NCBI GenBank assembly: GCA_041666685.1
Contig: JBAYGJ010000002.1
Coordinates: forward strand, 1-55,788
Reading direction: 5' to 3'
DNA: 55,788 nt
From: Patescibacteria group bacterium
Lineage (GTDB): Bacteria > Patescibacteriota > Patescibacteriia > UBA10025 > JAHIVO01
The notes below the pieces were generated by a model. It was not told the origin of the DNA. It was given only the letters and a program-made list of their open reading frames with translations, and ran no database searches. Positions 1,478-45,861 of the stretch are shown piece by piece. Each line of letters opens with the position of its first letter. The stretch's first letter is position 1. The translations under genes and the position numbers were made by a program.

Positions 1478-1639
1478 TGGTGCGCCTAGCAGGACTCGGG
1501 TGCTGGGCAGCGCCCCCGCAGTGCGGGGTCGACGCTCAACAACCCCTCATTATTTTCGGGGTTTGTTTCGCTCCTGCCCTTCGAGTCCAGTGCCATTTTA
1601 ATTGGTGGTACTAAACTGAAGTCTATATACTTTTCGAAG
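1478..1639 (-). repeat. tRNA-Lys 3'-end copy (with encoded CCA) preceded by a ~140-nt structured insert
   Basis: 1480-1498 matches 1639-1657 of the intact tRNA-Lys at 18/19 positions (T-loop 3' part, T-stem and acceptor 3' strand). It continues into CCA (tgg 1478-1480), which the intact gene lacks. The segment between holds GC hairpins CCCCGCA/TGCGGGG (1513-1528) and CCCC..GGGG (1543-1561), inside a longer imperfect stem (1491-1513 with 1569-1590). Confidence 0.7.
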
Positions 1640-1711
1640 TGCGCCCAGCAGGACTCGAACCTGCAACCTTAGGCTTAAGAGGCCTCTGCTCTACCATTGA
1701 GCTATAGGCGC
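1640..1711 (-). tRNA. tRNA-Lys (anticodon CTT), no encoded CCA
   Basis: The reverse complement folds as a cloverleaf: GCGCCTA / D arm GCTC-AATGGTA-GAGC / anticodon arm GAGGC-CTCTTAA-GCCTA / T arm GCAGG-TTCGAGT-CCTGC / TGGGCGC-A. Confidence 0.9.
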
Positions 1712-1946
1712 GTAAGATGGGGATAGTGTAGCAAGTAAGTGAAATTATTTCCAGGCCGGCACCATTTACCCCTAGGATTATTAATACTCAGTAAAAATTG
1801 CGCTGAGGAATACTATCAACATCAGGATACACATACTGATGACTGCCCAAAACTGCCAGGATTGATATGCTTTTTTCTTTGGTTTTTCTTGTTGTTGGTT
1901 GGGTTGCGGTTGGATTTGTTGATCCATATGATTTGTAAGTTAATTT

Positions 1947-2021
1947 TGGTATCCCCGCTTGGAATCGAACCAAGATGTCTAGCTTAGAAGGCTAGCGCTC
2001 TATCCATTGAGCTACGGGGAC
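1947..2021 (-). tRNA. tRNA-Arg (anticodon TCT), CCA encoded
   Basis: The reverse complement GTCCCCG-TA-GCTC-AATGGATA-GAGC-G-CTAGC-CTTCTAA-GCTAG-ACAT-CTTGG-TTCGATT-CCAAG-CGGGGAT-A-CCA is a canonical cloverleaf. Confidence 0.9.
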
Positions 2022-2118
2022 TTGTTAAAGTTGCCGCTCTATCCGCTCCGACGCTCCGACTAAAACGTCGGAGGTCCGGAGCCCCGACTATTACGTCGGG
2101 GTTGAGCTACGGGGACTT
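2022..2118 (-). repeat. tRNA-Arg 5' fragment (acceptor 5' strand plus D arm) with a 57-nt twin-hairpin insert in the D-loop
   Basis: 2102-2118 is 17/17 identical to 2007-2023, and 2035-2044 is 10/10 identical to 1996-2005. Between them (2045-2101) are two related hairpins, CCCCGACGTAATAGTCGGGG and CTCCGACGTTTTAGTCGGAG. No anticodon or T arm follows. Confidence 0.7.
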
Positions 2119-2620
2119 ATTTTTTTAGCGACAATGCCCGCTTGATAATCGTGGCACTATCTTTTTTCAGTGAGTTGTAGAATTTTATTCTGCTGATGCG
2201 CCGGACATCTATCCATTCTGGCTTTTGTACGTAGCCGAGCTCTTCACCGACCAGATTTTTGTCTGTTATCGCGCCGCTGACTCGTTTGCAGAGGAAGTAG
2301 ATGCAAATAGCATGGACTGATTTTTTATGATTTCTAAAGGTGAAGAATGACGATGAGCACCAGACCGGCAAACCGACGTTAACTTTCAAGCCAGTTTCTT
2401 CCCAGAATTCACGCTTTAGTGTCTGTCCCACCGTTTCGTGCTTATGTCCGCCCCCGCCGGGGAAATCATAGCCATCCCATTGTCTAGATAGTAATACTTT
2501 GTTTTTTTCAATCAACACACCATAAACAGAAGGCCGATATGTTAGTTTTTTTACCGGTACCCGTTGCAGGTTCCAGAACACATCATGACAAACGACAGTT
2601 TTTGGCGAAGTTTTGGGCAT
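2117..2620 (-). CDS. NUDIX hydrolase
   Basis: Nudix box GGGGHKHETVGQTLKREFWEETGL (GX5EX7REUXEEXGU). Confidence 0.85.
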   Translation of the reverse strand: MPKTSPKTVVCHDVFWNLQRVPVKKLTYRPSVYGVLIEKNKVLLSRQWDGYDFPGGGGHKHETVGQTLKREFWEETGLKVNVGLPVWCSSSFFTFRNHKKSVHAICIYFLCKRVSGAITDKNLVGEELGYVQKPEWIDVRRISRIKFYNSLKKDSATIIKRALSLKK

Positions 2621-2712
2621 AATGATCCTGCTGAATGTATCAGTAATATTTGATCAAGTCAACTCGTATATATTGTACTTCGTGCCAGCCGACAAAGCAA
2701 AGGATCGGCTAC

Positions 2713-2740
2713 TTGACAATGTGCCAATAATCCCTATAAT
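2713..2740 (+). promoter_or_regulatory. sigma-70-type promoter upstream of rpsO
   Basis: TTGACA (2713-2718), a 16-nt spacer, then TATAAT (2735-2740). The 85-nt leader contains the hairpin GGGGC-cggttaac-GCCCC, so an S15-autoregulated leader is possible but not shown. Confidence 0.6.
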
Positions 2741-2825
2741 AACGGTTACTAATTAACTGTACGGGTTTCTCGGTTTGGGGCCGGTTAACGCCCCTGTACT
2801 GGGTTCCCGCGAAAGGACAAACAGC

Positions 2826-3113
2826 ATGTTAACCAAACCGGAAAAGGATAAGATTATTGACAAGTATAAGACGCACGCACAGGACACCGGATCGCCGGAG
2901 GTCCAGATTGCCATCCTCTCTGAGGAGATCAGCCGTTTGACCGGGCACCTCCAGGACCACAAGAAAGATTTTTCCTCGCGCCGCGGATTGCTCCGCAAGG
3001 TCGGATTGCGCCGCCGGCTGTTGAAATATCTGGAAAAGGACAACCCGAAAAGTTACGAGAACTTGACCAAGAAACTTAAACTGAAAACTAAGCAGGCTCA
3101 TGATCAAGCATAA
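2826..3113 (+). CDS. rpsO: 30S ribosomal protein S15
   Basis: MLTKPEKDKIIDKYKTHAQDTGSPEVQIAILSEEISRLTGHLQDHKKDFSSRRGLL is the typical S15 sequence. The internal ATG at 2826 is preferred over the ORF-track start at 2775. Confidence 0.93.
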   Translation: MLTKPEKDKIIDKYKTHAQDTGSPEVQIAILSEEISRLTGHLQDHKKDFSSRRGLLRKVGLRRRLLKYLEKDNPKSYENLTKKLKLKTKQAHDQA

Positions 3114-3624
3114 GGATCAGCGAGTCGGCGTTTTCGTCGACGTGCAGAACATGTATTATTCAGCCAAGAACCTTTACGGTCAAAAGGTCAATTTTGGCGA
3201 AATCCTGAAAACGGCCGTTGCAGACCGGAAGCTGATCCGGGCCATGGCCTATGTGATCAAGGCCCAGAACGCAGACGAGCAGAAATTTTTTGATGCACTG
3301 TCAAACCAGGGTTTCGAAGTGAAGATGAAGGACTTACAGGTTTTCTGGGGCGGCCACAAAAAAGGTGACTGGGACATCGGGCTGGCTATGGACGTCATCC
3401 GCCTGTCCACCAAGCTGGACGTGGTCGTATTGGTGACTGGCGATGGGGATTTTGTTCCGTTGATCGAATACATGAAGAACCATGGCCAGTTTGTCGAAGT
3501 GGTGGCATTCGACGAGTCAGCTTCGAGCCAGCTGACTGCCGCTGCTGACGCTTTTACTAATCTGAGTGAAAATAAGAAAAAATACCTTTTACCTGCGTCG
3601 GATATTCGTGGCCGGCGTCGTTAA
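3100..3624 (+). CDS. NYN/LabA-like domain protein (putative RNase)
   Basis: VGVFVDVQNMYYSAKNLYG and VVLVTGDGDFVPLI motifs of the NYN (PF01936-like) family. The start overlaps the rpsO 3' end by 14 nt. Confidence 0.7.
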   Translation: MIKHKDQRVGVFVDVQNMYYSAKNLYGQKVNFGEILKTAVADRKLIRAMAYVIKAQNADEQKFFDALSNQGFEVKMKDLQVFWGGHKKGDWDIGLAMDVIRLSTKLDVVVLVTGDGDFVPLIEYMKNHGQFVEVVAFDESASSQLTAAADAFTNLSENKKKYLLPASDIRGRRR

Positions 3625-3821
3625 TTTGGGCAATGCTCTTTGGAATTACAAATAATTAATAGGCCGTTCGTCAATCTGCCAGGAACCGTGAATTACGCTT
3701 ACTACTTTTCGTAGACTTTTATCTCCAGTGAACTGTCGGTCCACTCCGGATAAAGGTTTATGAAGTGGTAGCGCTAGAGCCGGATCCGCAACGTGATGGG
3801 CAGGCCAAGAAGGAAAAAAGT

Positions 3822-6095
3822 ATGTCTAAGATCGAAAAGTTTTCTACAGAAATCGCCGGCCGCGAGCTGACTTTTGAAGTCGGCCGATTCGCCGGCCAGG
3901 CCAATGCCGCCTGTGTCGTGCAGTATGGCGATACGGTCGTACTCGCTACGGCTGTCATGAGCAAAAATACGCGCGAAGGCATCGATTACTTCCCGCTCCT
4001 CGTTGATTACGAAGAGAGGCTGTATGCCGCCGGGAAAATTAAAGGCTCGCGTTTCATCAAACGCGAAGGACGGCCTACTGACGAAGCAATCCTGACTTCC
4101 CGTCTGGTAGACCGATCAATCCGCCCGTTGTTCAATCAGTCAAGCCGGCAGGACGTGCAGGTGGTGCTGACCGTATTGTCCGTCGACCAGGAGAATGATC
4201 CTGATATCATTTCACTTCTGGCGGCCTCATGCGCGCTGTCGATTTCCAATATTCCCTGGAGCGGCCCGGTGGCCGGCGTACGTATCGGCCAGATCAACGG
4301 CGAGTGGGTGCTGAATCCGACCTATGCGGCCCGTGAAAAAAGCGTCATGGACCTGGCCGTGATCGGGAAAGCTGATAAAATTACCATGATCGAGGCCGGC
4401 GCGCTCCAGATGTCCGAAGATACCATGTATGCCGGTATGGAGTTTGCGCAGAAGCATATCGCTAAACTCATTTCTTTCATCAATGACATCCAGACGAAGA
4501 TCGGCAGGCCGAAAGAGTCTATTGCCTCTACGGGACCGACGGAAGAGGAGAAAGCTAAGTCGGAAAAACTGAAGGAAAAAGTAAAGAATTTCTGTCAGGC
4601 CAAGATCGGGTCAGTTTTTGAACATAAGGACCGGCATGCCCAGGGCGAGGCGATGGATGCCCTCCGGACCCAACTGGAAGAAGTACTCAAAGCGGATAAT
4701 GAAGTTACGAAAGAAGAGCGGGCCAAAGGGCTTAAAATGGTGGATGGCATATATGAGGTAGAGTCCCGGCGCATGGTACTGGAAGAAGGCCGGCGCGTTG
4801 ATGGCCGGGCAGTAGATGAAATCCGTCCGTTATCGGCTGATGTGGCATTACTCCCCCGCACGCATGGTTCCGGTTTATTCAACCGCGGTGAAACCCAGGT
4901 ATTATCAGTAGTTACGCTCGGATCCCCAGGTGACGAACAGACGATGGACTCAATGGAAGAGTCTGGTAAAAAGCGTTTTATGCATCATTATAATTTTCCG
5001 GGCTTTTCCACCGGTGAGGTGGCTCCTGTCCGATCGCCAGGCCGCCGCGAAATTGGCCATGGCGCGTTGGTAGAAAAAGCCCTGTCCCAAGTGATGCCCG
5101 CCAAGGATAAGTTCCCCTATACGATTCGTGTCGTATCGGAAGTGCTGTCATCAAACGGCTCAAGTTCGCAGGCATCGTGCTGCGGTTCGTCATTGGCGCT
5201 GATGGATGCCGGCGTGCCGATTCTCGATCCGGTAGCCGGTATTGCGATGGGTTTGATTTCCGACGAAAAAGACCCGTCACGATTCAAGGTGCTGACAGAT
5301 ATCCAGGGCATTGAGGATCATAATGGTGATATGGATTTCAAGGTGGCCGGTACTAAGAATGGCATCACGGCCATCCAGATGGACGTGAAACTGGACGGCA
5401 TTTCGCTCGAAGTGGCCAGACAGGCACTTGATGGCGCCAAGAAAGCCCGCTTGCAGATATTGGATGTGATGACAAAAGCCATCCCGGCTCCGCGGGCCGA
5501 GCTGTCAAAATATGCGCCGCGCATCACCATGCTGAAGATCAATCCGGAACTGATCCGCGAAGTGATCGGCAAGGGCGGCGAAACGATCAATAAGATCATT
5601 GATGAATGCGGCGGAGCTGATGTCATCAAGATTGATATTGAGGATGATGGTCTGATATACATCACTTCGGCTCATGCTGACATGGCGAAGAAGGCTGAAG
5701 ATTGGATCCAGAATATCGTTAAAGAAGTATTGCCGGGAGAAATATATGAAGGAACGGTGACGCAGATCCTGAAAGACCGCAACAGCGGCGGTGAAATCGG
5801 CGCGGTCGTGGAAATAGCGCCAGGCAAGGACGGCATGGTGCACATTTCGGAATTTTCTCAGGGACGTATCAGGAATGTTTCTGATGTCGTACATGTGGGG
5901 CAAAAGATAAAAGTCAAAGTGGTTGACGTGGACAAGGAGCGGGGCCGGACGAGTCTGTCGGTCAAGGCTTTGGGGACGGACAGTGATTTGGTCATCCCGC
6001 CGTCAGCTCTTGATACGTCAGGCGGTTTTGACCGAGGCGGATCCCGCGGACGCCCGAGCGGTGGTCGTCCCCCATTCAGACACGGCCCGAGATAA
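3822..6095 (+). CDS. pnp: polynucleotide phosphorylase with an RG-rich C-terminal tail
   Basis: Full-length PNPase architecture: two RNase PH domains, KH (GKGGETINKI) and S1 (GTVTQILK..GMVHISE). The ATG at 3822 is preceded by AAGGAAAAAAG. The rpsO-pnp synteny is classical. Confidence 0.95.
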   Translation: MSKIEKFSTEIAGRELTFEVGRFAGQANAACVVQYGDTVVLATAVMSKNTREGIDYFPLLVDYEERLYAAGKIKGSRFIKREGRPTDEAILTSRLVDRSIRPLFNQSSRQDVQVVLTVLSVDQENDPDIISLLAASCALSISNIPWSGPVAGVRIGQINGEWVLNPTYAAREKSVMDLAVIGKADKITMIEAGALQMSEDTMYAGMEFAQKHIAKLISFINDIQTKIGRPKESIASTGPTEEEKAKSEKLKEKVKNFCQAKIGSVFEHKDRHAQGEAMDALRTQLEEVLKADNEVTKEERAKGLKMVDGIYEVESRRMVLEEGRRVDGRAVDEIRPLSADVALLPRTHGSGLFNRGETQVLSVVTLGSPGDEQTMDSMEESGKKRFMHHYNFPGFSTGEVAPVRSPGRREIGHGALVEKALSQVMPAKDKFPYTIRVVSEVLSSNGSSSQASCCGSSLALMDAGVPILDPVAGIAMGLISDEKDPSRFKVLTDIQGIEDHNGDMDFKVAGTKNGITAIQMDVKLDGISLEVARQALDGAKKARLQILDVMTKAIPAPRAELSKYAPRITMLKINPELIREVIGKGGETINKIIDECGGADVIKIDIEDDGLIYITSAHADMAKKAEDWIQNIVKEVLPGEIYEGTVTQILKDRNSGGEIGAVVEIAPGKDGMVHISEFSQGRIRNVSDVVHVGQKIKVKVVDVDKERGRTSLSVKALGTDSDLVIPPSALDTSGGFDRGGSRGRPSGGRPPFRHGPR

Positions 6096-6111
6096 TTTAT
6101 TTCTACTCATT

Positions 6112-6681
6112 ATGATTGTTACCATCAGCGGCAAGCCTGGTTCCGGTAAAAGTACCGTCGCCGAACGGCTGGCCGCTGATTTGGGGTATAAGCGGTATTA
6201 TGTCGGTGCCATGTGGAGAGAAGCTGCCCGGGCGCGCGGGATGAACATAACTGAGTTTGGGGCTTTGGCAAACCGCGATTCTTCCATCGATATTGGGTTT
6301 GAGAAGTCCATCGAAGAGCTCGGACAGCGTGAAGATAATTTTGTGATCGAAAGTCGGACAGCATGGCATTTCATTCCCCACTCGATAAAAGTTTTTATCG
6401 ATGTCAGCGACGATGAAGGCGCCAAGCGGATATGGGGGGCTCTCCAGAAAAAAAATTCAAGCGACCGGAGCGAAGAAAAACATTTGACCACCCTGGCCGC
6501 CGTACTGGAGTCTGTCCGTGACCGTATTTCCAAGGAAACTATCAGGTACCAGAAATATTATGGCATTGATATTTTTGATCGCGTGAACTACGACCTGTTC
6601 CTGGACGCCACTACACTAGACCAGGCACAGGAGTACCAGGCAGTATATTCGTTTGTTAAGAAACACCTGAAAAAAAACTAA
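6112..6681 (+). CDS. cmk: archaeal-type cytidylate kinase (AAA/NMP kinase family)
   Basis: MIVTISGKPGSGKSTVAERLA P-loop, and ..RYQKYYGIDIFDRVNYDLFLDAT, resembling short archaeal-type Cmk. The start is taken at ATG 6112; the longer tracked ORF overlaps pnp. Confidence 0.7.
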   Translation: MIVTISGKPGSGKSTVAERLAADLGYKRYYVGAMWREAARARGMNITEFGALANRDSSIDIGFEKSIEELGQREDNFVIESRTAWHFIPHSIKVFIDVSDDEGAKRIWGALQKKNSSDRSEEKHLTTLAAVLESVRDRISKETIRYQKYYGIDIFDRVNYDLFLDATTLDQAQEYQAVYSFVKKHLKKN

Positions 6682-6791
6682 TAAAAGCCAAAAAGATTGA
6701 TTATCCGATATTGTGGATAATTATTTTTTATTATTTTAATCTTTTTTTACGAAAATTGAGAAAAAAATGTAATATTAGCCATTAGTTGCTA

Positions 6792-6820
6792 TTGACAAAG
6801 GCGTTTTTATGTGATATACT
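6792..6820 (+). promoter_or_regulatory. near-consensus sigma-70 promoter
   Basis: TTGACA (6792-6797), a 17-nt spacer, then TATACT (6815-6820). Confidence 0.6.
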
Positions 6821-6826
6821 GGCTTT

Positions 6827-7217: not shown

Positions 7218-7338
7218 GTTTCGAAAACCCCTTTGGGAAAGTGGTTTTCGACGCATTCCGCAAAGAGCGGTGTTACTCGGCGCGGGACCTTATAACCCAC
7301 ACCTCGCAACGATCTATTTTGATTGGTATACTTATGGC

Positions 7339-7962: not shown

Positions 7963-7982
7963 TTGTGCTATAATACTGATAT

Positions 7983-20408: not shown

Positions 20409-20492
20409 TGCCGCCGGTCGGAATCGAACCGACACGGCCTTGCGGCCAACGGATTTTAAGTCCGTCGCGTATACCAGTTCCGCCACGGCGGC
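20409..20492 (-). tRNA. tRNA-Leu (anticodon TAA), long variable arm, no encoded CCA
   Basis: Reverse complement: GCCGCCG..ACGGA-CTTAAAA-TCCGT-GGCCGCAAGGCCGT-GTCGG-TTCGATT-CCGAC-CGGCGGC-A. Confidence 0.9.
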
Positions 20493-20963: not shown

Positions 20964-21116
20964 AGCGGGGAACGGCCCGCCTCGACTCGCATTGTTCGTC
21001 GACGCGAGGCGGGGACTTCTTCTCCCCCAATCTCGTCGCAAGCCTCCTCGATTTCCTCCGAAGCCTGTGGCCCTCGCTTCAACTCCTTCGGAGCGCTCGG
21101 GTCCGCTTCGAATCCG
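20964..21116 (-). repeat. GC-rich hairpin element carrying a 12-nt copy of the tRNA-Gly(GCC) 3' end
   Basis: 20964-20975 (agcggggaacgg) is identical to 21176-21187. It is followed by the stems CCCGCCTCG/CGAGGCGGG (20976-21013) and CTCCGAAG/CTTCGGAG (21056-21093), and a T-loop-like TTCGAA at about 21107. Confidence 0.5.
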
Positions 21117-21172
21117 TTAATTATTAAGGCTACCGTACTGATTGCGAGTATTTGATATTAATTAATGTTCGC

Positions 21173-21247
21173 TGGAGCGGGGAACGGGACTCGAACCCGC
21201 GACCTCTTCCTTGGCAAGGAAGCGTTCTACCACTGAACTACCCCCGC
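21173..21247 (-). tRNA. tRNA-Gly (anticodon GCC), CCA encoded
   Basis: Reverse complement: GCGGGGG-TA-GTTC-AGTGGTA-GAAC-G-CTTCC-TTGCCAA-GGAAG-AGGTC-GCGGG-TTCGAGT-CCCGT-TCCCCGC-T-CCA. Confidence 0.9.
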
Positions 21248-21391: not shown

Positions 21392-21483
21392 TGGAGGCGT
21401 GAGCGGGAATTCTTCTCGTTCCTCGAAGCCGGCCGCCCTTCGCTTTATCACCTTCGGTGCGCTCTGGTCGGCTGCAATTCCCG
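21392..21483 (-). repeat. tRNA-Cys 3'-end copy (with CCA) whose T-loop holds a ~62-nt insert
   Basis: 21395-21411 is 17/17 identical to 21503-21519 and is preceded by tgg (CCA), which the intact gene lacks. CGGGAATT (21404-21411) and AATTCCCG (21476-21483) close a hairpin around a GC-rich insert containing cccttcgc. Confidence 0.65.
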
Positions 21484-21502
21484 TATATTTATTAAGGTGA
21501 CT

Positions 21503-21574
21503 AGGCGTGAGCGGGAATTGCACCCGCGTATAGAGGTTTTGCAGACCTCTGCCTTACTACTTGGCTATCACGCC
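21503..21574 (-). tRNA. tRNA-Cys (anticodon GCA), no encoded CCA
   Basis: Reverse complement: GGCGTGA-TA-GCCA..GGC-A-GAGGT-CTGCAAA-ACCTC-TATAC-GCGGG-TGCAATT-CCCGC-TCACGCC-T. The U73 discriminator and A13/A22 mismatch are typical of tRNA-Cys. Confidence 0.85.
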
Positions 21575-21578
21575 TTAA

Positions 21579-21643
21579 AGAGGTGGTTTTGTCCCGCATT
21601 CGTGGCGGGGCAGACCTCTGCCTTACCACTTGGCAACGTAGCC
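21579..21643 (-). pseudogene. tRNA-Cys-like 5' two-thirds with a different acceptor strand and a hairpin inserted in the anticodon loop
   Basis: 21610-21643 matches the D arm and anticodon-stem region of the intact gene (21541-21574), but the acceptor is GGCTACG instead of GGCGTGA. After CTGC a 19-nt hairpin (CCCGC-cacgaat-GCGGG, 21593-21609) interrupts the anticodon. There is no T arm or 3' strand. Confidence 0.6.
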
Positions 21644-23580: not shown

Positions 23581-23589
23581 ATTTTGAAA

Positions 23590-23601
23590 AGCGGGTAGGG
23601 A
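23590..23601 (-). repeat. 12-nt copy of the tRNA-Gly(TCC) 3' end (outer 3' piece)
   Basis: agcgggtaggga is identical to 23620-23631. Confidence 0.6.
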
Positions 23602-23606
23602 CTTAT

Positions 23607-23704
23607 TTAAGTCACATTGAGCGGGTAGGGAGAATCGAACTCCCGGCAACAGGTTGGAAACCTGTGGTATTACCACTATACGATACCCGCTCAATGTGAC
23701 TTAA
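23607..23704. repeat. perfect 21-nt inverted repeat framing the intact tRNA-Gly(TCC)
   Basis: ttaagtcacattgagcgggta (23607-23627) is the exact reverse complement of tacccgctcaatgtgacttaa (23684-23704). This extends the 7-bp acceptor stem by 14 bp. Confidence 0.9.
23620..23690 (-). tRNA. tRNA-Gly (anticodon TCC), no encoded CCA
   Basis: Reverse complement: GCGGGTA-TC-GTAT-AGTGGTA-ATAC-C-ACAGG-TTTCCAA-CCTGT-TGCC-GGGAG-TTCGATT-CTCCC-TACCCGC-T. Confidence 0.9.
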
Positions 23705-23782
23705 TTGTTGTAAATATGTTTGTGAATCGCCCGTGAACCACTGAATGGTTCAGGGCGTCATGTACCCTTGAGTGGTACATAA

Positions 23783-23837
23783 CGAACTCCCGGCAACAGG
23801 TTGGAAACCTGTGGTATTGCCACTATACGATACCCGC
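23783..23837 (-). pseudogene. 55-nt 5' copy of tRNA-Gly(TCC), positions 1-55, truncated in the T-loop (outer 5' piece)
   Basis: 54/55 identical to 23636-23690 (single g/a difference at 23819 vs 23672). The copy ends at ..GGGAGTTCG. Confidence 0.85.
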
Positions 23838-23987
23838 ATTAATGCTAAGGATGCCAAAGAAAATTATTAAGGTCAATATAGTAATTTCCTTGCCTCATTG
23901 TAACCTCAACTCCTTCTTTTTTCAAGTGCAGGGTTCGGTGTCGTCGGGTTCTTTTGTATTTATCATAAACAGGATACAATAGAACAT

Positions 23988-30275: not shown

Positions 30276-30420
30276 TGGTCGGGGTGCCCGGGACCCTTCG
30301 ACTTCGCTCAGGGCAGGCTTGTCACCGCCATCCTGTCATCTGACAGGATAGGTCCCGGCGGACCCCCCCGACGATACCGTCGGAAATGATTCCAGCCCTC
30401 CCCAGAGACTGGTCCGCTGA
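30276..30420 (-). repeat. tRNA-Pro 3'-end copy (with CCA) joined to a ~130-nt hairpin-rich insert
   Basis: 30276-30291 is 16/16 identical to 30449-30464, with a similar 3' flank. CCGGGACC (30288-30295) pairs with GGTCCCGG (30351-30358) around the motif cccttcgacttcgctcaggg (30294-30313) and the hairpin ATCCTGTCA/TGACAGGAT. Confidence 0.7.
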
Positions 30421-30448
30421 ATACAGTAATTAAACTATTAAATTTATT

Positions 30449-30525
30449 TGGTCGGGGTGCCCGGACTTGAACCGGGGACCTCTCGCTCCCAAAGCGAGCG
30501 TTCTAGCCAACTGAACTACACCCCG
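30449..30525 (-). tRNA. tRNA-Pro (anticodon TGG), CCA encoded
   Basis: Reverse complement: CGGGGTG-TA-GTTC-AGTTGGCTA-GAAC-G-CTCGC-TTTGGGA-GCGAG-AGGTC-CCCGG-TTCAAGT-CCGGG-CACCCCG-A-CCA. Confidence 0.9.
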
Positions 30526-33019: not shown

Positions 33020-33057
33020 CCGAGGGCCACCTACGGTCGGACTGGCGACTCAAGGAT
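33020..33057 (-). repeat. tRNA-Phe 3'-half copy with a substituted T-loop
   Basis: ccgagggcca (33020-29), cggactggcgac (33038-49) and caaggat (33051-57) match 33084-93, 33098-109 and 33111-17. The T-loop gaat is replaced by cctacggt. Confidence 0.65.
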
Positions 33058-33081
33058 GAAAAGGGTAATTCTGCTCCCAAA

Positions 33082-33153
33082 TGCCGAGGGCCAGAATCGG
33101 ACTGGCGACGCAAGGATTTTCAGTCCTTCGCTCTACCACTGAGCTACCTCGGC
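33082..33153 (-). tRNA. tRNA-Phe (anticodon GAA), no encoded CCA
   Basis: Reverse complement: GCCGAGG-TA-GCTC-AGTGGTA-GAGC-G-AAGGA-CTGAAAA-TCCTT-GCGTC-GCCAG-TCCGATT-CTGGC-CCTCGGC-A. Confidence 0.9.
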
Positions 33154-33163
33154 ATGTGACCGT

Positions 33164-33261
33164 CCTCGGCATTTGGGAGTAATTAGCACCATTCGCTCTT
33201 CCGGGGCGCTTCTATGGGCGCGCCCGCTCTGCTTGTGCAGAGCCCACTTCGCTACCTCGGC
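33164..33261 (-). repeat. two upstream copies of the tRNA-Phe 5' acceptor strand separated by GC hairpins
   Basis: cctcggc (33164-70) plus atttgggag (33171-79) is the exact complement of the tRNA 3' strand plus trailer, giving a 16-bp alternative helix. gctacctcggc (33251-61) is 11/11 identical to 33143-53 and is followed on the minus strand by the hairpins GCTCTGCACAAGCAGAGC and GGGCGCGCCC. Confidence 0.65.
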
Positions 33262-33300
33262 GGATTCACCGGCATAAGCGAGTATTATGATACGTGTCCA

Positions 33301-33377
33301 TGGTGGGGACGAGAGGAGTTGAACCTCTGACCTTCACAATGTCAATGTGACGCTCTAACCAACTGAGCTACGTCCCC
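33301..33377 (-). tRNA. tRNA-Val (anticodon GAC), CCA encoded
   Basis: Reverse complement: GGGGACG-TA-GCTC-AGTTGGTTA-GAGC-G-TCACA-TTGACAT-TGTGA-AGGTC-AGAGG-TTCAACT-CCTCT-CGTCCCC-A-CCA. Confidence 0.9.
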
Positions 33378-33383
33378 GTGGTC

Positions 33384-33466
33384 TGGTGGGCGACCCAGGA
33401 GTTGCACCCTTCGACTTCGCCACCTCGATTTCACTCGGTGGCTTCGCTCAGGGTAGGCCTGGGACC
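33384..33466 (-). repeat. tRNA-Ile 3'-third copy (with full CCA) carrying a ~50-nt insert between the T-stem 5' strand and the T-loop
   Basis: 33385-33408 is 24/24 identical to 33518-33541, and cctgggacc (33458-66) equals 33540-48. The insert carries a split cccttcgacttcgc / cttcgctcaggg motif around the hairpin GCCACC..GGTGGC. Confidence 0.8.
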
Positions 33467-33519
33467 GCTCAAGTATCCAATAACAAATTTCTTCAGCATG
33501 AATGCTATTATTCCCTCGG

Positions 33520-33593
33520 TGGGCGACCCAGGAGTTGCACCTGGGACCTCGTCATTATCAGTGACGCGCTCTAACTACCTGAGCTAGTCGCCC
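33520..33593 (-). tRNA. tRNA-Ile (anticodon GAT); only CC of CCA encoded
   Basis: Reverse complement: GGGCGAC-TA-GCTC-AGGTAGTTA-GAGC-G-CGTCA-CTGATAA-TGACG-AGGTC-CCAGG-TGCAACT-CCTGG-GTCGCCC-A. Leader TTCCCTCAGT and trailer ACCGAGGGAA add 10 bp (one A/C mismatch) to the acceptor helix. Confidence 0.9.
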
Positions 33594-33623
33594 ACTGAGG
33601 GAACAAGTATGGCTACCTGCTTG

Positions 33624-33655
33624 CCCCGAGCGAAGTCGAGGGGAGCTAGTCGCCC
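33624..33655 (-). repeat. 13-nt tRNA-Ile 5' copy fused to the shared GC motif
   Basis: gagctagtcgccc (33643-55) is identical to 33581-93. The adjacent ccccgagcgaagtcgagggg (33624-43) is the shared motif in the orientation complementary to the copy inside the 3' fragment. Confidence 0.7.
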
Positions 33656-33756
33656 ATGCCTTTTTTCCAACAAAAAAACTACAACCTGATGGTACTATTG
33701 TAGTTTATCATACATAAAAAATCAAATGACTGGAGGGATGCTTATAAACCCCTTAG

Positions 33757-33787
33757 CAACCAGCAGGTGGTAAAGAATACGAATCAA
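33757..33787 (-). promoter_or_regulatory. 3' strand of the 16S rRNA processing stem
   Basis: caaccagcaggtggtaaagaatacgaatcaa is nearly perfectly complementary to 35389-35418 on the other side of the 16S gene. Confidence 0.7.
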
Positions 33788-33851
33788 CTCAATGATGTAT
33801 ATCTATACGTACGTCAGAGACGCACGAATATCGACAAATTGGTTACTCCTT

Positions 33852-35347
<1,496 letters not shown>

Positions 35348-35388
35348 TAGTTGGAGTTTTTAACTAGAAAAACTCCCAAAAAAAGGAA

Positions 35389-40645: not shown

Positions 40646-40772
40646 AAATGTATAGGTAATTAAATGCAAAAAATCCACTTAAGCATGAGTGGTGCTAAAG
40701 ATGACTAGGCCCCTTCAGTGAAACCTCTTATAAAGAAACACTGTTGATTAGGGAAATTTTTTTACTTTTTTG

Positions 40773-41177
40773 CTAGGCAGCTGGTTTAGCCTCGCCCGTT
40801 TCAGCTTTTGGCTGAGGCGTTTCTGGAACTGGTACCGGGACAGCCTCTGTTTTAGGCTCTACAGCTTTTGGGGCCGGTGCGGGCTCGGCAGATTTCGGAG
40901 CTTCTTCCTTCTTGCGGATGTTCGCCACCTTGATTTTCTCGCCAGTGATAAGTTTCTGGTCGATCAGCAGATTATGAACCACCCCGGAAGTGGAGGCACC
41001 CTTGGAAATCCAATGTTGGATACGCTCTTTTTTCAGCTCGACTTTATTGGTATGCGGGTCGTAGGTCCCGAGCAGTTCCAAATAGTCACCGACCGTGTCC
41101 TTGGCCTTTTCAGAAACGATGATCCGGAATACCGGATGTTTCTTTTTGCCGAATCTTGATAAACGAATAGTTAGCAT
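40773..41177 (-). CDS. rpsP: 30S ribosomal protein S16 with an Ala/Pro/Lys/Glu-rich C-terminal extension
   Basis: MLTIRLSRFGKKKHPVFRIIVSEKAKDT..GTYDP is the S16 core. About 50 extra residues follow (KKEEAPKSAEPAPAPK..). Confidence 0.93.
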   Translation of the reverse strand: MLTIRLSRFGKKKHPVFRIIVSEKAKDTVGDYLELLGTYDPHTNKVELKKERIQHWISKGASTSGVVHNLLIDQKLITGEKIKVANIRKKEEAPKSAEPAPAPKAVEPKTEAVPVPVPETPQPKAETGEAKPAA

Positions 41178-41277
41178 AGTATACGTATTTTAGGGTAAAA
41201 TCGTTTTTTCGTCAAGCCCCCCTCCCGGCAGACCCACATCCAACGATCATGGGCGCACTTCCATGGGGCAGAATAGG

Positions 41278-43977
41278 CTACCTGTTGACGACTTTTTCTG
41301 CCTCCGCCATGTCGATAGACAGGAGTTTGGATGCTCCGTCGTTGCTCATAGTTACGCCGTAGATAATGGTAGCTTTATTCATCGTGGCTCGGTTATGGGT
41401 GATAACGATGAATTGGGTTTTTTTAGACAGCCTTTCCACGATTGAAGCGAACCTGATGGAGTTGCTTTCGTCCAGTGCCGCATCCACTTCGTCCAAAATG
41501 ACGAACGGCGACGGATTATTATGGATGATGGCGCAGATCAGGGCGATGGATGTCAGGGCACGTTCCCCGCCGGAGAGCATGCTGATGCCACGGAGTTTTT
41601 TCCCGGGCGGAGTGGCGTGGATATCGATGCCAGTGATTATTTTTTCCACTTTTTTGGTATACAGGGGATTTTTTTTCTTTTCCTCTTCTGCGTCCTCGTT
41701 ATCATCTCCCTCTTCGTCCTCCTCTTCTTCTCCCATTTCTTCCAATTCCTCTTCAGGGCTTTTCGGCTCTTCTTTGACCAGCGACAGGCTGGCGTGGCCG
41801 CCATTGAAGAGAATCTTGAAGTATTCGCCGAACTGGGCGTTGATCTGTTCGAAAGCCTTGCCGAACTGTTCCTTGATCGTCTCATTCAGGTTGGCGATGG
41901 CTGATTCAAGGTCGGCCATGGCCTTGTTCAGGTCGGCGGTTTCAGTGGTCAGGAAGTCAAAACGTTCCTTGGTGGTTTTGTATTCCTCGGCAACCTGCGG
42001 GTCGATGCCGCCGATCAGTTCGATCTGTTTTTTCAGGTGCTGGATCTGCTCGAAGAGTTGCGGCTCCGGCGGGACGGCCGGACCGGCCTTCACTCTGGCA
42101 CGTTCATCGTCAGTGAGCTCGTCGGTCATTTCTTTGGCCAGGTCCTCCTGGTGCGTTTCGATTTTAGCAATGGAGATCTGGATGCCGTTCAGTTCCGCGG
42201 TGATGATATTCAGGGCCTGTTGTTTTTGGGAGAAGACGTTCTGTTGTTTGAACACCTCTTCTTTCTTCTTTTGCTCAGTCTGGTTGAAAGACGCAATCTG
42301 TTCGGTAATTTTTGACAGTTGAGCCTCGATCCCGTTGATTTTTTGGCTGATTTCCTTCTCATCATTGGCGATATCCCGTGATAATTCTGAGGCGGTTTTG
42401 GACGATGAGGCCCGGGTCAGGTCACGGGAAATTTTGGCCAATTCGTCCGTCAGGTTTGTTATTTGAGCGCGGTGCAGGGATTCTTTTTCCTGATGGACCT
42501 GGAGCTTGATTTTGATGGCATTGATTTCAGTTGCGATTGTTTCCTTGTGACCGAGCAGTTTGGCGATTTGGTCCTGCAGGCCGATGACTTCATGCGGGTC
42601 GCCGGAACCTGATTCGCGGAGTTTCTGGGCCAGATGGCGGAGTTGGCTGGTGATGGCCCGGGCCGTTGTTTTGATCGCGTGCAGCTCGTCCAGTGTCTGG
42701 GCCTGCTCGATTTTATTCAACAATTCCTGCTGTTCGGTAAAAAGTTGGTCAATGGATTTGGCTACCTCTGGAATGGTGACGGTTTTTCGGTTGGCCATCC
42801 GGCTGCGCGACGCCTGGAGGCTTTGGCTCAATGCCTGGATCTCGGAGGAGACGACCTGGAATGTTTTTTCCTTTTCGGCCAAATGGCTGGAGAATTTTTC
42901 CGCCTGTCCGGAATGTCCCGCGCTGGAGACGTCGAGTTCGCTGATGGACGCCTGCAATTGTTCCTTGCGGCGTTCGAGCCAGACCAGATCGTATTGGCCC
43001 TGCTGTTCGCGGCTGACGGCGATTTTGCCCTTGATGATGGCCTGGTCGCGCAGCAAGGAATTTTTTTCCGTTGACAGTTGGTTGTATTCGCGCTGGAGTT
43101 TGTCGTACTCTTCCTGCCGACTGGTGCCCAGGGCCAGCTCGTGCATATGAGCCTGGATAGTATCCAACTCCTTGGTAACCGTTTCGCGTTTCTTGTCGGT
43201 CTCGTGGAATTTTTTCTCTTCCACTTCATGTTGGGCGGCCAGGTCATGCCATTGGCCGGTGTAATAGGTATGCTGGACGTTTTTCAGTTCCGCCTGCACT
43301 TCCTCGCGTTTTTCCAGGCGGTGTACCTGGCGGGTCAGCGAGCGAAGCCTGGGCTCGATTTCCTGGATGAGCAGTTCGGCCTGGCTGAGGTTTTCTCGGG
43401 TCAGGTCGAGTTTATGCTCAGCCTGTTCTTTTTTGAGCTGGTACTGCCTGACGCCGGCCGCCTCGTCAAAAAATTCCTTCCGTTGGTTCGGCGTGGCGGC
43501 CAGGAACAGGTCGACCATGCCCTGGCTAATGATGCTGTAGGAGCGCTGGCCGAAATTCGATTTAGCCAAAAGCAGGAGGATGTCCTGGAGCCGGACCTTG
43601 TTCTTGTTGATGAAGTATTCGCCCTCCCCGTCCCGGTAGATTTTCCGGGTAATGATGATTTCACCGTAATCGATGGGCGCCTGGCGGTCCTCGTTATTCA
43701 GGTGCATGTCCACCTGGCAGAATCCGAGGCGGGATTTCTTGTCCGAGCCGGCAAAAATGACGTCCTCGGATTTCTTTCCGCGGAGGGTTTTCAGGCTCTG
43801 TTCGCCCAGGACCCAACGGACCGCGTCAGCGGTGTTGGACTTGCCGGAGCCGTTTGGGCCGACGATGGCCGTAATGCCCGGCTTGAATTCTAGGACGGAT
43901 TTGCTGGCAAATGATTTAAAGCCCTGGATGACGAGTTGTTGGAGATACATGGTGTCTTTGTGGGATTTTTTGGACAA
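41278..43977 (-). CDS. smc: chromosome segregation SMC protein (short, 899 aa)
   Basis: Walker A GPNGSGKSN, long coiled coils, signature LSGGERALT, Walker B FVILDEVDAALD. An acidic insert EEELEEMGEEEEDEEGDDNEDAEEE lies before the C-terminal head. Confidence 0.9.
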   Translation of the reverse strand: MSKKSHKDTMYLQQLVIQGFKSFASKSVLEFKPGITAIVGPNGSGKSNTADAVRWVLGEQSLKTLRGKKSEDVIFAGSDKKSRLGFCQVDMHLNNEDRQAPIDYGEIIITRKIYRDGEGEYFINKNKVRLQDILLLLAKSNFGQRSYSIISQGMVDLFLAATPNQRKEFFDEAAGVRQYQLKKEQAEHKLDLTRENLSQAELLIQEIEPRLRSLTRQVHRLEKREEVQAELKNVQHTYYTGQWHDLAAQHEVEEKKFHETDKKRETVTKELDTIQAHMHELALGTSRQEEYDKLQREYNQLSTEKNSLLRDQAIIKGKIAVSREQQGQYDLVWLERRKEQLQASISELDVSSAGHSGQAEKFSSHLAEKEKTFQVVSSEIQALSQSLQASRSRMANRKTVTIPEVAKSIDQLFTEQQELLNKIEQAQTLDELHAIKTTARAITSQLRHLAQKLRESGSGDPHEVIGLQDQIAKLLGHKETIATEINAIKIKLQVHQEKESLHRAQITNLTDELAKISRDLTRASSSKTASELSRDIANDEKEISQKINGIEAQLSKITEQIASFNQTEQKKKEEVFKQQNVFSQKQQALNIITAELNGIQISIAKIETHQEDLAKEMTDELTDDERARVKAGPAVPPEPQLFEQIQHLKKQIELIGGIDPQVAEEYKTTKERFDFLTTETADLNKAMADLESAIANLNETIKEQFGKAFEQINAQFGEYFKILFNGGHASLSLVKEEPKSPEEELEEMGEEEEDEEGDDNEDAEEEKKKNPLYTKKVEKIITGIDIHATPPGKKLRGISMLSGGERALTSIALICAIIHNNPSPFVILDEVDAALDESNSIRFASIVERLSKKTQFIVITHNRATMNKATIIYGVTMSNDGASKLLSIDMAEAEKVVNR

Positions 43978-44101
43978 ATGAAAGAGGCTTGAGGCCCTCT
44001 TGATGGGGATATTTTAACATGTTTTCGGGAAATTCCCAAATAAAAATCGGGCTCACACTAGTAGAATGTGGAGCCCGTAGCATTTCTGGTTTGAGATGTG
44101 T

Positions 44102-44449
44102 CTAAAGTGGCGCGTTCTGGCCAGTTTCTGGAGTGCCACCATTTTTTGTCATCAGGTATTTCTGGCGATATTTTTTACCCCCAATAAACCCGAAGACGAT
44201 GATACCGAAGACATAGGCGATGGCGCTGATTATCAGCATTGCTTTCCAGAACGGATCGTGTTCAGCCAAGTATCCTCCGAAAATGGATCTTAGTATGAGG
44301 ACGATACATGCTATGCCGAACAGCATCAGGATGAAAAGGTCCATCTTTTTGTCATTCCAGTGGTTATTGATCCATTGGAAACAACCAACCGGAAAACAGA
44401 TAGTATATCCCAGGGCTTTAAGGTTCTCTAGAAAACCTTGGATAGACAT
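44102..44449 (-). CDS. small integral membrane protein, function unknown
   Basis: 115-aa ORF with 3 predicted hydrophobic helices. Confidence 0.5.
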   Translation of the reverse strand: MSIQGFLENLKALGYTICFPVGCFQWINNHWNDKKMDLFILMLFGIACIVLILRSIFGGYLAEHDPFWKAMLIISAIAYVFGIIVFGFIGGKKYRQKYLMTKNGGTPETGQNAPL

Positions 44450-44552
44450 CCTATCCTCCTCGCTTTTGAAGGAACCATTATTAAATTACACAATCATATC
44501 GTCTTTTATTAGGTGCGTCAAGGGAAGTTAAAAACTTCCATAAACTTGTTAT

Positions 44553-44581
44553 TTGACGTCAGTTGTCCCTCCGTGTATCAT
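44553..44581 (+). promoter_or_regulatory. sigma-70-type promoter
   Basis: TTGACG (44553-58), a 17-nt spacer, then TATCAT (44576-81). Confidence 0.5.
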
Positions 44582-44587
44582 GGAGAT

Positions 44588-44800
44588 GCCCGCCATGTGA
44601 ACAGCACGGAAGAGGGCGACTACTGAACAGCTCGCATTTTGCGGGAAGAGTCATGCGAGCAACTTCGCAACCCGGGAGAGCGGTCTGTACCTTTTCATTC
44701 AATTCATAATCTACCCTCGTGGTGGATGCGGCAACTGCCGTTGATCATCAATCCGATGTACAGACCCGGTGTGAGCATACGCTCTCCCGGTCTTTTTTTA
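44588..44800 (+). ncRNA. candidate ~210-nt structured non-coding RNA of unknown class
   Basis: No ORF longer than 20 codons. Hairpin CTCGCAT..ATGCGAG (about 44631-44659). A long-range helix CCGGGAGAGCG+GTCTGTAC (44672-44690) pairs with GTACAGAC (44758-65) and CGCTCTCCCGG (44780-90), followed by T7. Confidence 0.4.
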
Positions 44801-44802
44801 AA

Positions 44803-44832
44803 TTAAAAAAAGCCATTGTGTTTCCACAACGG
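44803..44832 (-). terminator. rho-independent terminator of the sigma-factor gene
   Basis: On the minus strand: CCGTTGTG-gaaa-CACAATGG followed by CTTTTTTT. Confidence 0.7.
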
Positions 44833-44837
44833 CTAGG

Positions 44838-45683
44838 TCAATCGGAGAACATGCCTCCGCCTTCAGTTTCTGTTAATTTTCTGGCAGCAATTTTCAATTT
44901 ACGCTTGGCGATGGTGAATCGGGCTTGGACCATCGTGGTGGTCATTTGGAAACGTTCAGCCGCTTCCTTAAGTAAGTGGCGCTGACCATCTTCCATGCCA
45001 CTCATATACCGGAAAATTTCACGTTCCTCATCGGTTAAGACTTGGAGTAGGTCGGCCAGAACTGCGGCATAATGCCGTTGATCAACGATGGCATCAGGTG
45101 AGATGGCGCGCTCATCTACTAGCAGGTCATGTAATGACGAATCACTGTCAGAAAAATGCTCATCCAATGACCGATGCGTTGCGGTGGCAAACGCCTCCCT
45201 CATCTGGGTTTCGCTGATGCCGAGCTCTTTCAGTTGCTCTGGTGATAACGGTGCACCTGACTGGCCGGCGACGGCAGTTTCCAGCGCTTTCCGGATGGCA
45301 TAGAATTCGTTCTGGATGTGCGTCCTTGAGGAAATGATATGCTGGAATCTGGCGACTTCTTCTCTGATATGCTGACGGATCGGCCAGACTGCATAGGAGA
45401 TGAGACGCGCGTTCCTGTCTGGATGGTATAATTTTATTGCGATAGCCAGCCCAGTATTGCCGGCGTTGACCAGGTCTTCGATAGCAACGTCGGACCAGCT
45501 GTACAAATTGGCGACGGAAACGACGAAACGCAGATGAGCTTTTGCCAGTTTTTCCTGCGCTTTTCTATCACCCACCAGACTTTTTGTCGCTAATTGTGCC
45601 TCCTCTTCACGTGTGATGAGAGGAGTCTTACCGATCTCATCCAAGTAATACTTATAACTTGGAGAGTTGGAATAAGTGCCCAT
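44838..45683 (-). CDS. RNA polymerase sigma-70 family factor (compact, RpoD-like regions 2-4)
   Basis: YLDEIGKTPLITREEE (region 1.2), HLRFVVSVANLY (2.x), WPIRQHI.. and a C-terminal HTH (..LLKEAAERFQMTTTMVQARFTIAKRKL). Confidence 0.85.
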   Translation of the reverse strand: MGTYSNSPSYKYYLDEIGKTPLITREEEAQLATKSLVGDRKAQEKLAKAHLRFVVSVANLYSWSDVAIEDLVNAGNTGLAIAIKLYHPDRNARLISYAVWPIRQHIREEVARFQHIISSRTHIQNEFYAIRKALETAVAGQSGAPLSPEQLKELGISETQMREAFATATHRSLDEHFSDSDSSLHDLLVDERAISPDAIVDQRHYAAVLADLLQVLTDEEREIFRYMSGMEDGQRHLLKEAAERFQMTTTMVQARFTIAKRKLKIAARKLTETEGGGMFSD

Positions 45684-45724
45684 ATTTACCTCTCAATGTA
45701 CGTGTGTTTGTTTTAAATTACAAA

Positions 45725-45753
45725 AGTGTACGATATTATCAGCTCCTCGTCAA
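45725..45753 (-). promoter_or_regulatory. sigma-70-type promoter upstream of the sigma-factor gene
   Basis: On the minus strand: TTGACG (45753-45748), a 17-nt spacer, then TACACT (45730-45725). Confidence 0.5.
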
Positions 45754-45861
45754 GGGACGGGTAGGGATCCCTCAACATTGCCACTTCGACTTCGCTCGTG
45801 GGCTACGTTCGGGATATTTTTTCTGCCGAAATTTTTTCGCTCAGGAGGAACTTGAAAATTC

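Follow-up and report, generated by a model that had tools for sequence, protein, structure and literature searches.

Dead copies of tRNA genes beside intact ones in a Patescibacteria lineage: possible remains of repeated gene replacement

The DNA analyzed here, called the window, is a whole 55,788-nucleotide (55.8-kb) stretch of contig JBAYGJ010000002.1 from a Patescibacteria group bacterium (GenBank assembly GCA_041666685.1), and the features at issue are partial copies of tRNA genes that lie close to intact ones. ARAGORN and Rfam found the same ten tRNA genes in the window, all on the - strand. For eight of them, Lys, Arg, Gly(GCC), Cys, Gly(UCC), Pro, Phe, and Ile, a partial copy of the gene itself lies on the same strand no more than 350 nt away. 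The self-copies were detected by an exact-match scan and by local alignment tested against shuffled flanks; each of the eight gave p ≤ 0.01 (p = 0.003 for the Lys 3' copy), and the rate of self-matches of at least 11 nt in 1.77 Mb of control sequence was 0.01 per tRNA. Neither scan detected a self-copy near tRNA-Leu or tRNA-Val. The eight tRNAs with companion fragments, and the two without, are those listed in an earlier reading made from the letters alone (the sequence-only reading), which on this point was borne out by both scans.

Intact tRNA genes and their dead copies

As read from the sequence, the companion fragments are mostly longer dead copies interrupted by G+C-rich inserts. The sites are given below in window order; all coordinates are on the - strand, and "positions" are those of the tRNA. 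The intact tRNA-Lys(CUU) gene (1639-1711) is followed by a dead 3' copy (1478-1590) that has a remnant of the T-stem (~1573-1578), a G+C-rich T-loop hairpin insert of ~75 nt, and positions 55-73 plus CCA (1478-1498). A67 of this fragment pairs with T6 of the 5' acceptor strand better than does G67 of the intact gene. tRNA-Arg(UCU) (1947-2021) is preceded by a dead 5' copy (2035-2116) in which positions 1-15 (2102-2116) and 17-26 (2035-2044) are separated by a D-loop insert, a 57-nt double hairpin (2045-2101; z-score -6.3). tRNA-Leu(UAA) (20409-20492) stands without a self-copy. Downstream of tRNA-Gly(GCC) (21173-21247) is a region (20964-21172) made up of an A+T-rich spacer, a G+C-rich insert ~70% similar to the Cys 3' insert, and a 3' fragment of positions 61-72 without CCA (20964-20975). 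The tRNA-Cys(GCA) gene (21502-21575) has copies on both sides. Its dead 5' copy (21577-21643) covers positions 1 to ~45, has another acceptor allele (ggctacg), and carries a 19-nt hairpin in the anticodon loop (~21592-21610), and its 3' region (21392-21501) is an insert of ~90 nt, rich in G+C, followed by positions 57-73 plus CCA (21392-21411).

At tRNA-Gly(UCC) the live gene (23619-23690) is the inner of two. The 5' part of the outer, older copy (23783-23837; positions 1-55/57) differs from the inner gene by one mismatch and is followed by an insert in its T-loop, a 54-nt double hairpin (23729-23782; z-score -6.6). The inner gene is abutted on the left by the inverted-repeat arm ttaagtcacattga (23691-23704), which forms 14 contiguous bp, and on the right by the arm aatgtgacttaa (23607-23618). 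The outer 3' fragment (23590-23601) consists of the 3' strands of the T-stem and acceptor stem without CCA and pairs with the outer 5' part in the predicted fold. The tRNA-Pro(UGG) gene (30449-30525) is followed by a region (30276-30448) containing an A+T-rich spacer, a degenerate 5' strand of a T-stem, hairpins that include a motif shared with other sites (motif M, CTGAGCGAAGYCGAAGG, discussed below), and a fragment of positions 62-77 with CCA (30276-30291).

Upstream of tRNA-Phe(GAA) (33081-33154) lie 5' fragments (33164-33261), namely positions 2-12 (33251-33261) and the acceptor 5' strand a second time (33164-33172), with G+C-rich hairpins between them. Downstream lies a dead 3' copy (33020-33054) of positions 38-58 and 62-71 with ccgtaggt in place of the T-loop. 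tRNA-Val(GAC) (33301-33377) has no self-copy. The tRNA-Ile(GAU) gene (33518-33593) is bracketed by the inverted repeat ttccctc/gagggaa. Its 5' region (33597-33655) contains positions 1-13 (33643-33655), an inverted M (33624-33643), and a spacer, and its dead 3' copy (33382-33466) contains positions 46-54 (33458-33466), a 51-nt insert, and positions 53-76 plus CCA (33382-33408). The 51-nt insert, at the junction of T-stem and T-loop, is a motif M divided by a nested hairpin.

Among the intact genes CCA is encoded only by Arg, Gly(GCC), Pro, and Val; the Ile gene encodes CC without the final A. For Lys, Cys, and Ile a full CCA is missing from the intact gene and present on the downstream fragment. 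Over the seven 3' fragments this asymmetry is seen for three, is reversed for Gly(GCC), gives way to CCA on both at Pro, and to CCA on neither at Gly(UCC) and Phe. The lists of CCA ends in the sequence-only reading were thus literally correct, whereas its headline, that CCA sits on the copy rather than on the gene, fits only three of the seven.

The same structures are seen in two further independent assemblies of the window genome (L081 and L082, >99.8% identical). Since they recur in independent assemblies, three in all, and in several other species, an assembly artefact was ruled out.

Nesting, inverted repeats, and alleles in related genomes

A scan with TrmD against a collection of one genome per species gave matches mostly in uncultivated Patescibacteria (Candidate Phyla Radiation, CPR). 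The best identity was only 77-78%, and the window's own species is therefore missing from that collection. Dead copies and inserts of the same kinds were found in at least five related species, L003, L005, L027, L033, and L044, all Patescibacteria with a syntenic TrmD-16S-Ile-(Val)-Phe-Pro region, whereas most other Patescibacteria loci and non-CPR loci had no such dead copies. Within the affected group the 5' Phe fragment of the window and its upstream flank are kept in L003, and the L003 orthologue of the dead 3' Phe copy carries an M-like insert where the window has ccgtaggt. Other pieces differ: dead copies of Val and Phe occur in L033 but not in L027, and the Ile 3' copy of the window is missing in L003. 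Because the layout varies between close species, a conserved precursor architecture is disfavored.

Two of the sites look like a tRNA within a tRNA when folded. The minimum-energy folds of the Ile region (33380-33660) and the Gly(UCC) region (23585-23840) have z-scores of -5.4 and -11.6, respectively, and the predicted layers, from the outside in, are the paired halves of the old acceptor, M with its inverted copy (at Ile), the leader-trailer stem, and the inner cloverleaf. At Gly(UCC) the T-loop of the old gene holds an entire block of two hairpins, a spacer, and the live gene between its repeats, and the arrangement in L003 and L005 is the same.

Inverted repeats that extend the acceptor stem were counted as leader-trailer duplexes of -12 kcal/mol or stronger. 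They flank 12 of the 33 live tRNAs of the affected genomes versus none of 66 at other loci (p = 3.6e-4). Their stems reach 16 contiguous bp, the leader usually pairs with the discriminator plus CC(A), and the leaders typically end in TGGT or GGT. Examples are the arms at window Gly(UCC) (23691-23704/23607-23618) and Ile (33597-33603/33509-33515), L033 16565-16665, and L005 15965-16065. The repeats differ between sister species, being present at L033 Pro and absent at L027 Pro, where the alleles differ too. The sequence-only reading had offered a lineage-specific pre-tRNA architecture as its alternative; as stated this is not supported, the layout being unconserved, although the acceptor-extending repeats are indeed a feature of the lineage.

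The dead pieces appear to evolve together with their live neighbors. The anticodon-loop insert of the old Gly(UCC) copy is identical at 35 of 37 positions between L003 and L005 and occurs nowhere else among 289 loci. The dead Gly(UCC) segments beside this insert agree with the live gene of the same genome at 44-45 of 45 positions, but with the gene of the other species they have 10-11 differences in 45. The simplest and most likely explanation of these sequences is that the live gene acts as donor in gene conversion of the dead pieces and so keeps them alike, which would also explain the loss of the anticodon-loop insert from the window copy.

In four cross-species cases the dead copy and the live gene belong to different alleles, and in three of these the dead allele is live in a sister species. 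The clearest is Ile. The live gene of L027 and L033 has the acceptor GGGCATG and the T-stem CCTGG, as in the distant L066, whereas the pieces flanking it read GGGCGAC...GTCGCCC, the live allele of the window, L003, L005, and L011. In L027 and L033 the dead 3' part matches the live L005 sequence except for an added 30 nt in the T-loop, between T55 and C56. Read in order, old positions 1-27 and a leader come first, then new positions 1-27 and another leader, the new gene, a trailer, and old positions 29-76, so that the new gene lies inside the old one. At Val, L003 has a new gene (GGGCTCG) upstream of a 5'-damaged, decaying copy that is the orthologue of the window's live Val gene, with a downstream flank in common. 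At Pro, the dead 3' copy of L005 has the T-stem of the window/L033 allele and its live gene has the L027 allele. At Gly(UCC) of L003, the outer 5' gcggata covaries with a far 3' tatccgc, versus gcgggta/tacccgc in the live gene.

The tRNA-Pro genes (L003 7526-7599, L005 15979-16054, L027 16036-16112, and L033 16580-16657) also group in a way that runs contrary to TrmD similarity. By their T-arms the window goes with L033 and L005 with L027, and the L003 gene is very divergent, a pattern that suggests allele exchange between lineages. In the window it is the Pro fragment, not the intact gene, that lies ~15 nt upstream of the orthologous Cache-domain gene, which is the position of tRNA-Pro in L003.

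The Pro synteny and the four allele cases agree with the proposal of the sequence-only reading that the fragment is the ancestral end and the intact gene, or part of it, the newcomer, and the better acceptor pairing of the Lys fragment points in this direction too. Its companion idea, that an insert simply brought a new 3' end, is not supported in that form. The 5' copies at five tRNAs and the nested whole-gene replacements call for more than this, and the G+C-rich inserts are heterogeneous, lie inside the loops of dead copies, and are not the vehicle that restored the gene.

Origin of the dead copies

The reading that we favor, and to which we give about half of our confidence, is that the companion fragments are the remains of earlier tRNA genes that were repeatedly replaced in place in this Patescibacteria lineage. 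A new complete copy would arrive beside the resident gene for the same tRNA, or within one of its loops, often lying between short inverted repeats that prolong the acceptor stem and sometimes being an allele known from other lineages. The resident gene would thereby be split or made redundant, and its 5' and/or 3' pieces would remain. These dead pieces would then carry small G+C-rich palindromic inserts, nearly always at the former D, anticodon, and T loops, one kind of insert being a 17-20-nt module that also caps many hairpins in unrelated DNA of bacteria and phages. Gene conversion would hold the pieces nearly identical to the live gene. We infer that the new copy most likely arrived either when DNA from relatives was taken up and recombined, the tRNA being the sole conserved anchor, or through fold-back synthesis started from the tRNA's own terminal inverted repeat, which would give leaders complementary to ACCA plus the trailer. 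Neither route needs a dedicated integrase.

A bolder form of this proposal, which we think unlikely, is that the repeat-bracketed tRNAs are transposase-less "replacement cassettes" that enter a loop of the cognate resident as hairpins or by fold-back, destroy it, and so become indispensable, with the G+C-rich hairpins and M spreading in the same structure-targeted way. Leaders that end in TGGT, the complement of ACCA, would be explained if a tRNA copy underwent snap-back extension. If true, such cassettes would make up a class of mobile DNA, guided by structure, that has not been described before, and essential RNA genes would be subject to selfish turnover; the chance that a new mode of structure-guided DNA mobility lies behind the pattern is modest.

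Several points weigh against replacement in place. No empty-site/filled-site polymorphism was found in the compared assemblies and relatives, and no donor of any new tRNA copy was found. Contigs encoding an identical TadA showed no structural polymorphism, and these contigs are one genome (99.9%). The sole close match in a metagenome scan with TadA, L203 (78%), is not syntenic, and neither are the contigs encoding homologues of the 439-aa neighboring protein, the nearest of which is 62% identical. As protein identity to the closest relatives is only 60-78%, single events cannot be reconstructed. The inverted repeats may have been selected as signals for processing and need not record the arrival of a copy, and the anticodon-loop insert common to L003 and L005 could have come by repeated site-specific re-insertion instead of orthology plus conversion. 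That replacement preceded the hairpin inserts is our inference, and the order may have been the reverse. Enzymes of mobility may be encoded outside the 55.8 kb. Lastly, the long persistence of dead pieces in very small genomes hints at some function.

The reverse order is the core of the main rival. Here small G+C-rich hairpin elements, which would resemble miniature inverted-repeat transposable elements, repetitive extragenic palindromic (REP) sequences, or rRNA intervening sequences and be mobilized in trans, strike tRNA loops first and a second copy, duplicated or imported, rescues the function. We consider this unlikely. Thirty-two inserts have 48-77% G+C and hairpin z-scores mostly of -2 to -6.7 relative to shuffled sequence. 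Of the 22 internal inserts in six genomes about 18 are in loops (D, anticodon, variable, or T; binomial p = 1e-5), as expected of elements that strike loops; the remaining three or four are in the 5' strand of the D-stem. Insertion at G10^C11 of two L003 tRNAs was precise, with no target duplication, and both inserts have TCCCG...CGGGA ends. An identical 30-31-nt T-loop insert is present in several pseudo-copies, and M is found at hairpin tips across many genomes. Moreover, one hairpin, CCGCCTCGCGTC...GCGAGTCGAGGCGG, is common to the window Gly(GCC) insert (~20985-21020) and the old Ile copy of L033 (15654-15708). These arms sit at different tRNAs of distant species, their loops differ, and the L033 loop holds another nested hairpin, so at least some hairpins have spread between sites or species.

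Against a hairpin-first order, some dead copies have no insert (the Val 5' copy of L044 and the L027 units of positions 1-27). In the four allele cases the new gene is another allele and not a cleaned-up duplicate, and a cell struck in its only copy of an essential tRNA would die before any rescue. In Pfam scans of ~47 open reading frames (ORFs) of the window, no integrase, recombinase, transposase, REP-associated tyrosine transposase (RAYT), reverse transcriptase, HUH enzyme, or phage gene was found. The hairpin families were not found outside tRNA neighborhoods in 1.2 Mb of related loci. As for the inserts in general, scans of viral contigs for two hairpin families and the anticodon-loop insert gave no match, and no live tRNA of the examined genomes carries a hairpin insert. 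Rfam gave no match to any insert or to M, at the gathering threshold or E ≤ 1, in the window and ten M-containing loci, and its models detected no recognizable group I or II intron core in the inserts. A census of perfect hairpins over the whole window was not discriminating.

The TCCCG...CGGGA ends recur in some inserts only, and no target-site duplication is evident where boundaries are exact (G10^C11 in L003 and the anticodon loop in L005). The Lys, Cys, and Gly(GCC) inserts begin with an apparent inverted copy of the T-loop, clearly beyond chance only for the 11-nt match at Cys; such matches arise partly because the T-arm is itself palindromic. In L033 (15810-15920) there is also a chimeric pseudo-tRNA whose 5' end is Ile-like, whose anticodon arm is that of Val, and whose 3' end is that of Ile. 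Because its T-loop holds the 31-nt insert also seen in the dead Val copy, recombination among dead copies seems to have occurred.

Known elements resemble these inserts in part. REP/REPIN sequences, Correia elements, Rickettsia palindromic elements, and the GC clusters of yeast mitochondria are likewise short, G+C-rich, imperfect palindromes in A+T-rich non-coding DNA that can nest and have related copies at unrelated sites or in other species. In contrast, the present inserts lie almost only in loops of dead tRNAs, with no RAYT or transposase in the window and no evident target duplication or family-wide termini. The intervening sequences of 23S and 16S rRNA and the rRNA insertions of CPR bacteria are similarly helix-closed stem-loops placed exactly at hairpin tips and sporadic between relatives, although those sit in functional genes and are removed from the RNA by RNase III, whereas the interrupted tRNA copies look dead beside an intact gene. 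How helix-closed modules (hairpins, M, and whole tRNAs) come to lie at hairpin tips without a recognizable transposase is the same puzzle that bacterial rRNA intervening sequences pose.

Integrase-mediated insertion is the usual explanation of prokaryotic tRNA fragments (PMC9897764). The sites would then be scars of prophages or other integrative elements that brought along a tRNA segment and were later deleted down to 20-200 nt, leaving their attL/attR repeats. Five tRNAs (Lys, Cys, Gly(GCC), Pro, and Ile) do have the expected order of intact gene, insert, and direct 3' repeat. Tyrosine integrases typically cross over at the anticodon and T loops. The likeness to att repeats, which integrative elements, prophages, and genomic islands leave behind, extends to a direct repeat of part of a tRNA around inserted DNA, a restored gene with its displaced end distal, and breakpoints that are often in the anticodon or T loop. 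Yet the inserts are only 19-200 nt long and have no ORF or other cargo, no integrase or phage gene lies in the 55.8 kb or between any repeat pair, and nearly every tRNA is affected. Copies of the 5' end at five tRNAs (Arg, Cys, Gly(UCC), Phe, and Ile), some broken in the D-loop or D-stem, and entire cognate genes nested in old genes also differ from att sites. With eight of ten tRNA genes affected, the elements would each have had to lose almost their entire interior and yet keep both att repeats, which makes this account distinctly unlikely. Neither was a phage vehicle identified, as scans of viral sequences with the central parts of tRNA-Pro and tRNA-Ile gave ordinary phage tRNA arrays with no self-copies.

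Still more doubtful, in our view, is a functional precursor in which fragments, hairpins, and repeats are selected parts of the pre-tRNA that serve as RNase III processing stems, folding insulators, or decoys. The regions fold far better than shuffled sequence, the leader-trailer stems are specific to the lineage and covary from one species to another, the window encodes RNase III, and dead pieces and some inserts are kept while spacers diverge. These observations are outweighed by the variation among close relatives already described (no Ile 3' copy in L003, no counterpart in L027 of the dead Phe and Val copies of L033, and a Pro repeat in L033 that L027 lacks), by hairpins that are decaying, such as the anticodon-loop insert of L003, and by the Leu and Val genes, which have no feature of this kind. 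Pairing of a leader with the 3' RCCA is moreover reported to inhibit bacterial RNase P (PMC9433436). Long acceptor-stem extensions should thus hinder that enzyme, and the maturation of such precursors is a processing problem in its own right.

The non-canonical introns and split tRNAs of archaea (Thermoproteales and Nanoarchaeum) also have inserts at the D, anticodon, and T loops and complementary flanks that join halves. The present organism, in contrast, is a bacterium with truncated, redundant interrupted copies, and no splicing endonuclease or bulge-helix-bulge has been shown. Split or permuted tRNAs do not describe these sites, where an intact gene is present for all eight tRNAs, nor do tRNA introns, as every interrupted copy appears truncated or decayed with an uninterrupted gene alongside. 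Simple tandem duplication was ruled out, the spacers being unrelated to the flanks and the alleles different. The tandem duplication-random loss of animal mitochondria likewise leaves tRNA pseudogenes beside a functional copy and homogenizes copies within a genome; it differs from the present sites in that their spacers are not flank duplicates (L044 Val), alleles can differ, the genes are nested rather than tandem, and the copies have hairpin inserts.

If replacement in place is the correct reading, the tRNA genes of one CPR branch have been replaced again and again, partly by alleles known also from other lineages. The dated layers of debris left behind would then naturally document how essential RNA genes were horizontally replaced and converted in genomes of ~1 Mb. 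Fragments of tRNA genes left by integration and small palindromic repeats are already known. A limited literature search found no joint description of dense, integrase-free dead copies over most tRNA genes of a lineage, nested cognate genes, and repeat-flanked replacements, nor did searches on tRNA introns or pseudogenes in CPR bacteria and Parcubacteria turn up this pattern. Note that automated annotation of these genomes can miscount tRNAs or call spurious short proteins from the G+C-rich inserts.

Motif M and the rest of the window

Motif M occurs four times in the 55.8 kb. It is exact at 30294-30313, inverted with two mismatches at 33624-33643, divided by a hairpin at 33409-33453, and present with three mismatches as an M-like hairpin at 45782-45801 (+ strand), between pyrB-pyrI and the sigma-factor gene with no tRNA gene adjacent. 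In 100 shuffles there was no match of this grade (three mismatches or fewer). These are the motif copies of the sequence-only reading, and they stand. Its CCCTTCG "cores", however, are weak evidence: the bare 7-mer is at chance frequency window-wide, with 11 found versus 7.8 expected, although four of the 11 lie in tRNA-insert regions. The same applies to a 10-nt Gly(UCC)-like tag that it had singled out at 45758-45767, which alone is at chance level, many 10-13-mers matching by chance. On the - strand of the segment 45758-45801, gatccctacccg, which resembles the 3' end of tRNA-Gly(UCC), follows the M-like hairpin by 11 nt, in the order and orientation seen at the Pro and Ile sites. The hairpin and gatccctacccg together may be a relic of a dead copy distant from any tRNA.

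M was also found in more than 120 viral contigs (a minimum), where ~14 would be expected by chance on a rough estimate of the collection size. Among the matches listed, a tRNA is found no more than 500 nt away from only 2 of 131 copies, and the median G+C of the contigs is 60%. There M caps hairpins with closing stems that differ from one another yet remain complementary, and elsewhere it lies in the arms of long palindromes. In one phage contig (L183) it caps a variable, covarying stem within a conserved element of ~250 nt, present in three copies, each upstream of an ORF. This element occurs also in L151, L096, and L142, has no Rfam match, and looks like an undescribed structured RNA or repeat.

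Judged by these occurrences, M is a widespread cross-phylum hairpin-tip module and not a signature of tRNAs. Because it is common in unrelated, mostly G+C-rich viral contigs and so seldom near a tRNA, it defines no tRNA-targeting family. The sequence-only reading had proposed such a motif-defined family and had itself named a ubiquitous motif unrelated to tRNAs as the result that would speak against it, and this is what was found. By eye, the sequence of M does not fit the consensus of a hammerhead, UNCG, or GNRA motif, and literature searches with this sequence and its translations gave nothing relevant.

The ORFs scanned with Pfam gave housekeeping matches or none, with PNPase, NusA, SMC, Ddl, TrmD, TadA, RNase III, RNase HII, and pyrBI among them. 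A complete bacterial 16S rRNA gene (33854-35350) is followed by tRNA-Ile, Val, and Phe (ARAGORN and Rfam). In this cluster (33081-35350), as anywhere in the window, there is neither a tRNA-Ala nor a 23S rRNA gene, and as no 23S gene accompanies the 16S gene, the rRNA genes appear to be unlinked.

U55 is near-universal in the T-loops of tRNAs. It is missing from those of the window Ile (33518-33593), Cys (21502-21575), and Phe (33081-33154) genes, of which the first two read TGCAAYT (G55) and the third TCCGATT (C55). L003 shares both the Ile and the Phe T-loop sequences with the window and L005 only that of Phe. Between tRNA-Arg and tRNA-Lys a small ORF of ~50 aa (~1780-1930, - strand) has a hydrophobic C-terminal half. 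Two ORFs resemble orotidine monophosphate decarboxylase (2-658 and 48963-49874), and a single 493-aa ORF (45928-47409, - strand) joins the catalytic domains of aspartate carbamoyltransferase (PyrB) to both domains of its regulatory chain (PyrI), an apparent fusion.

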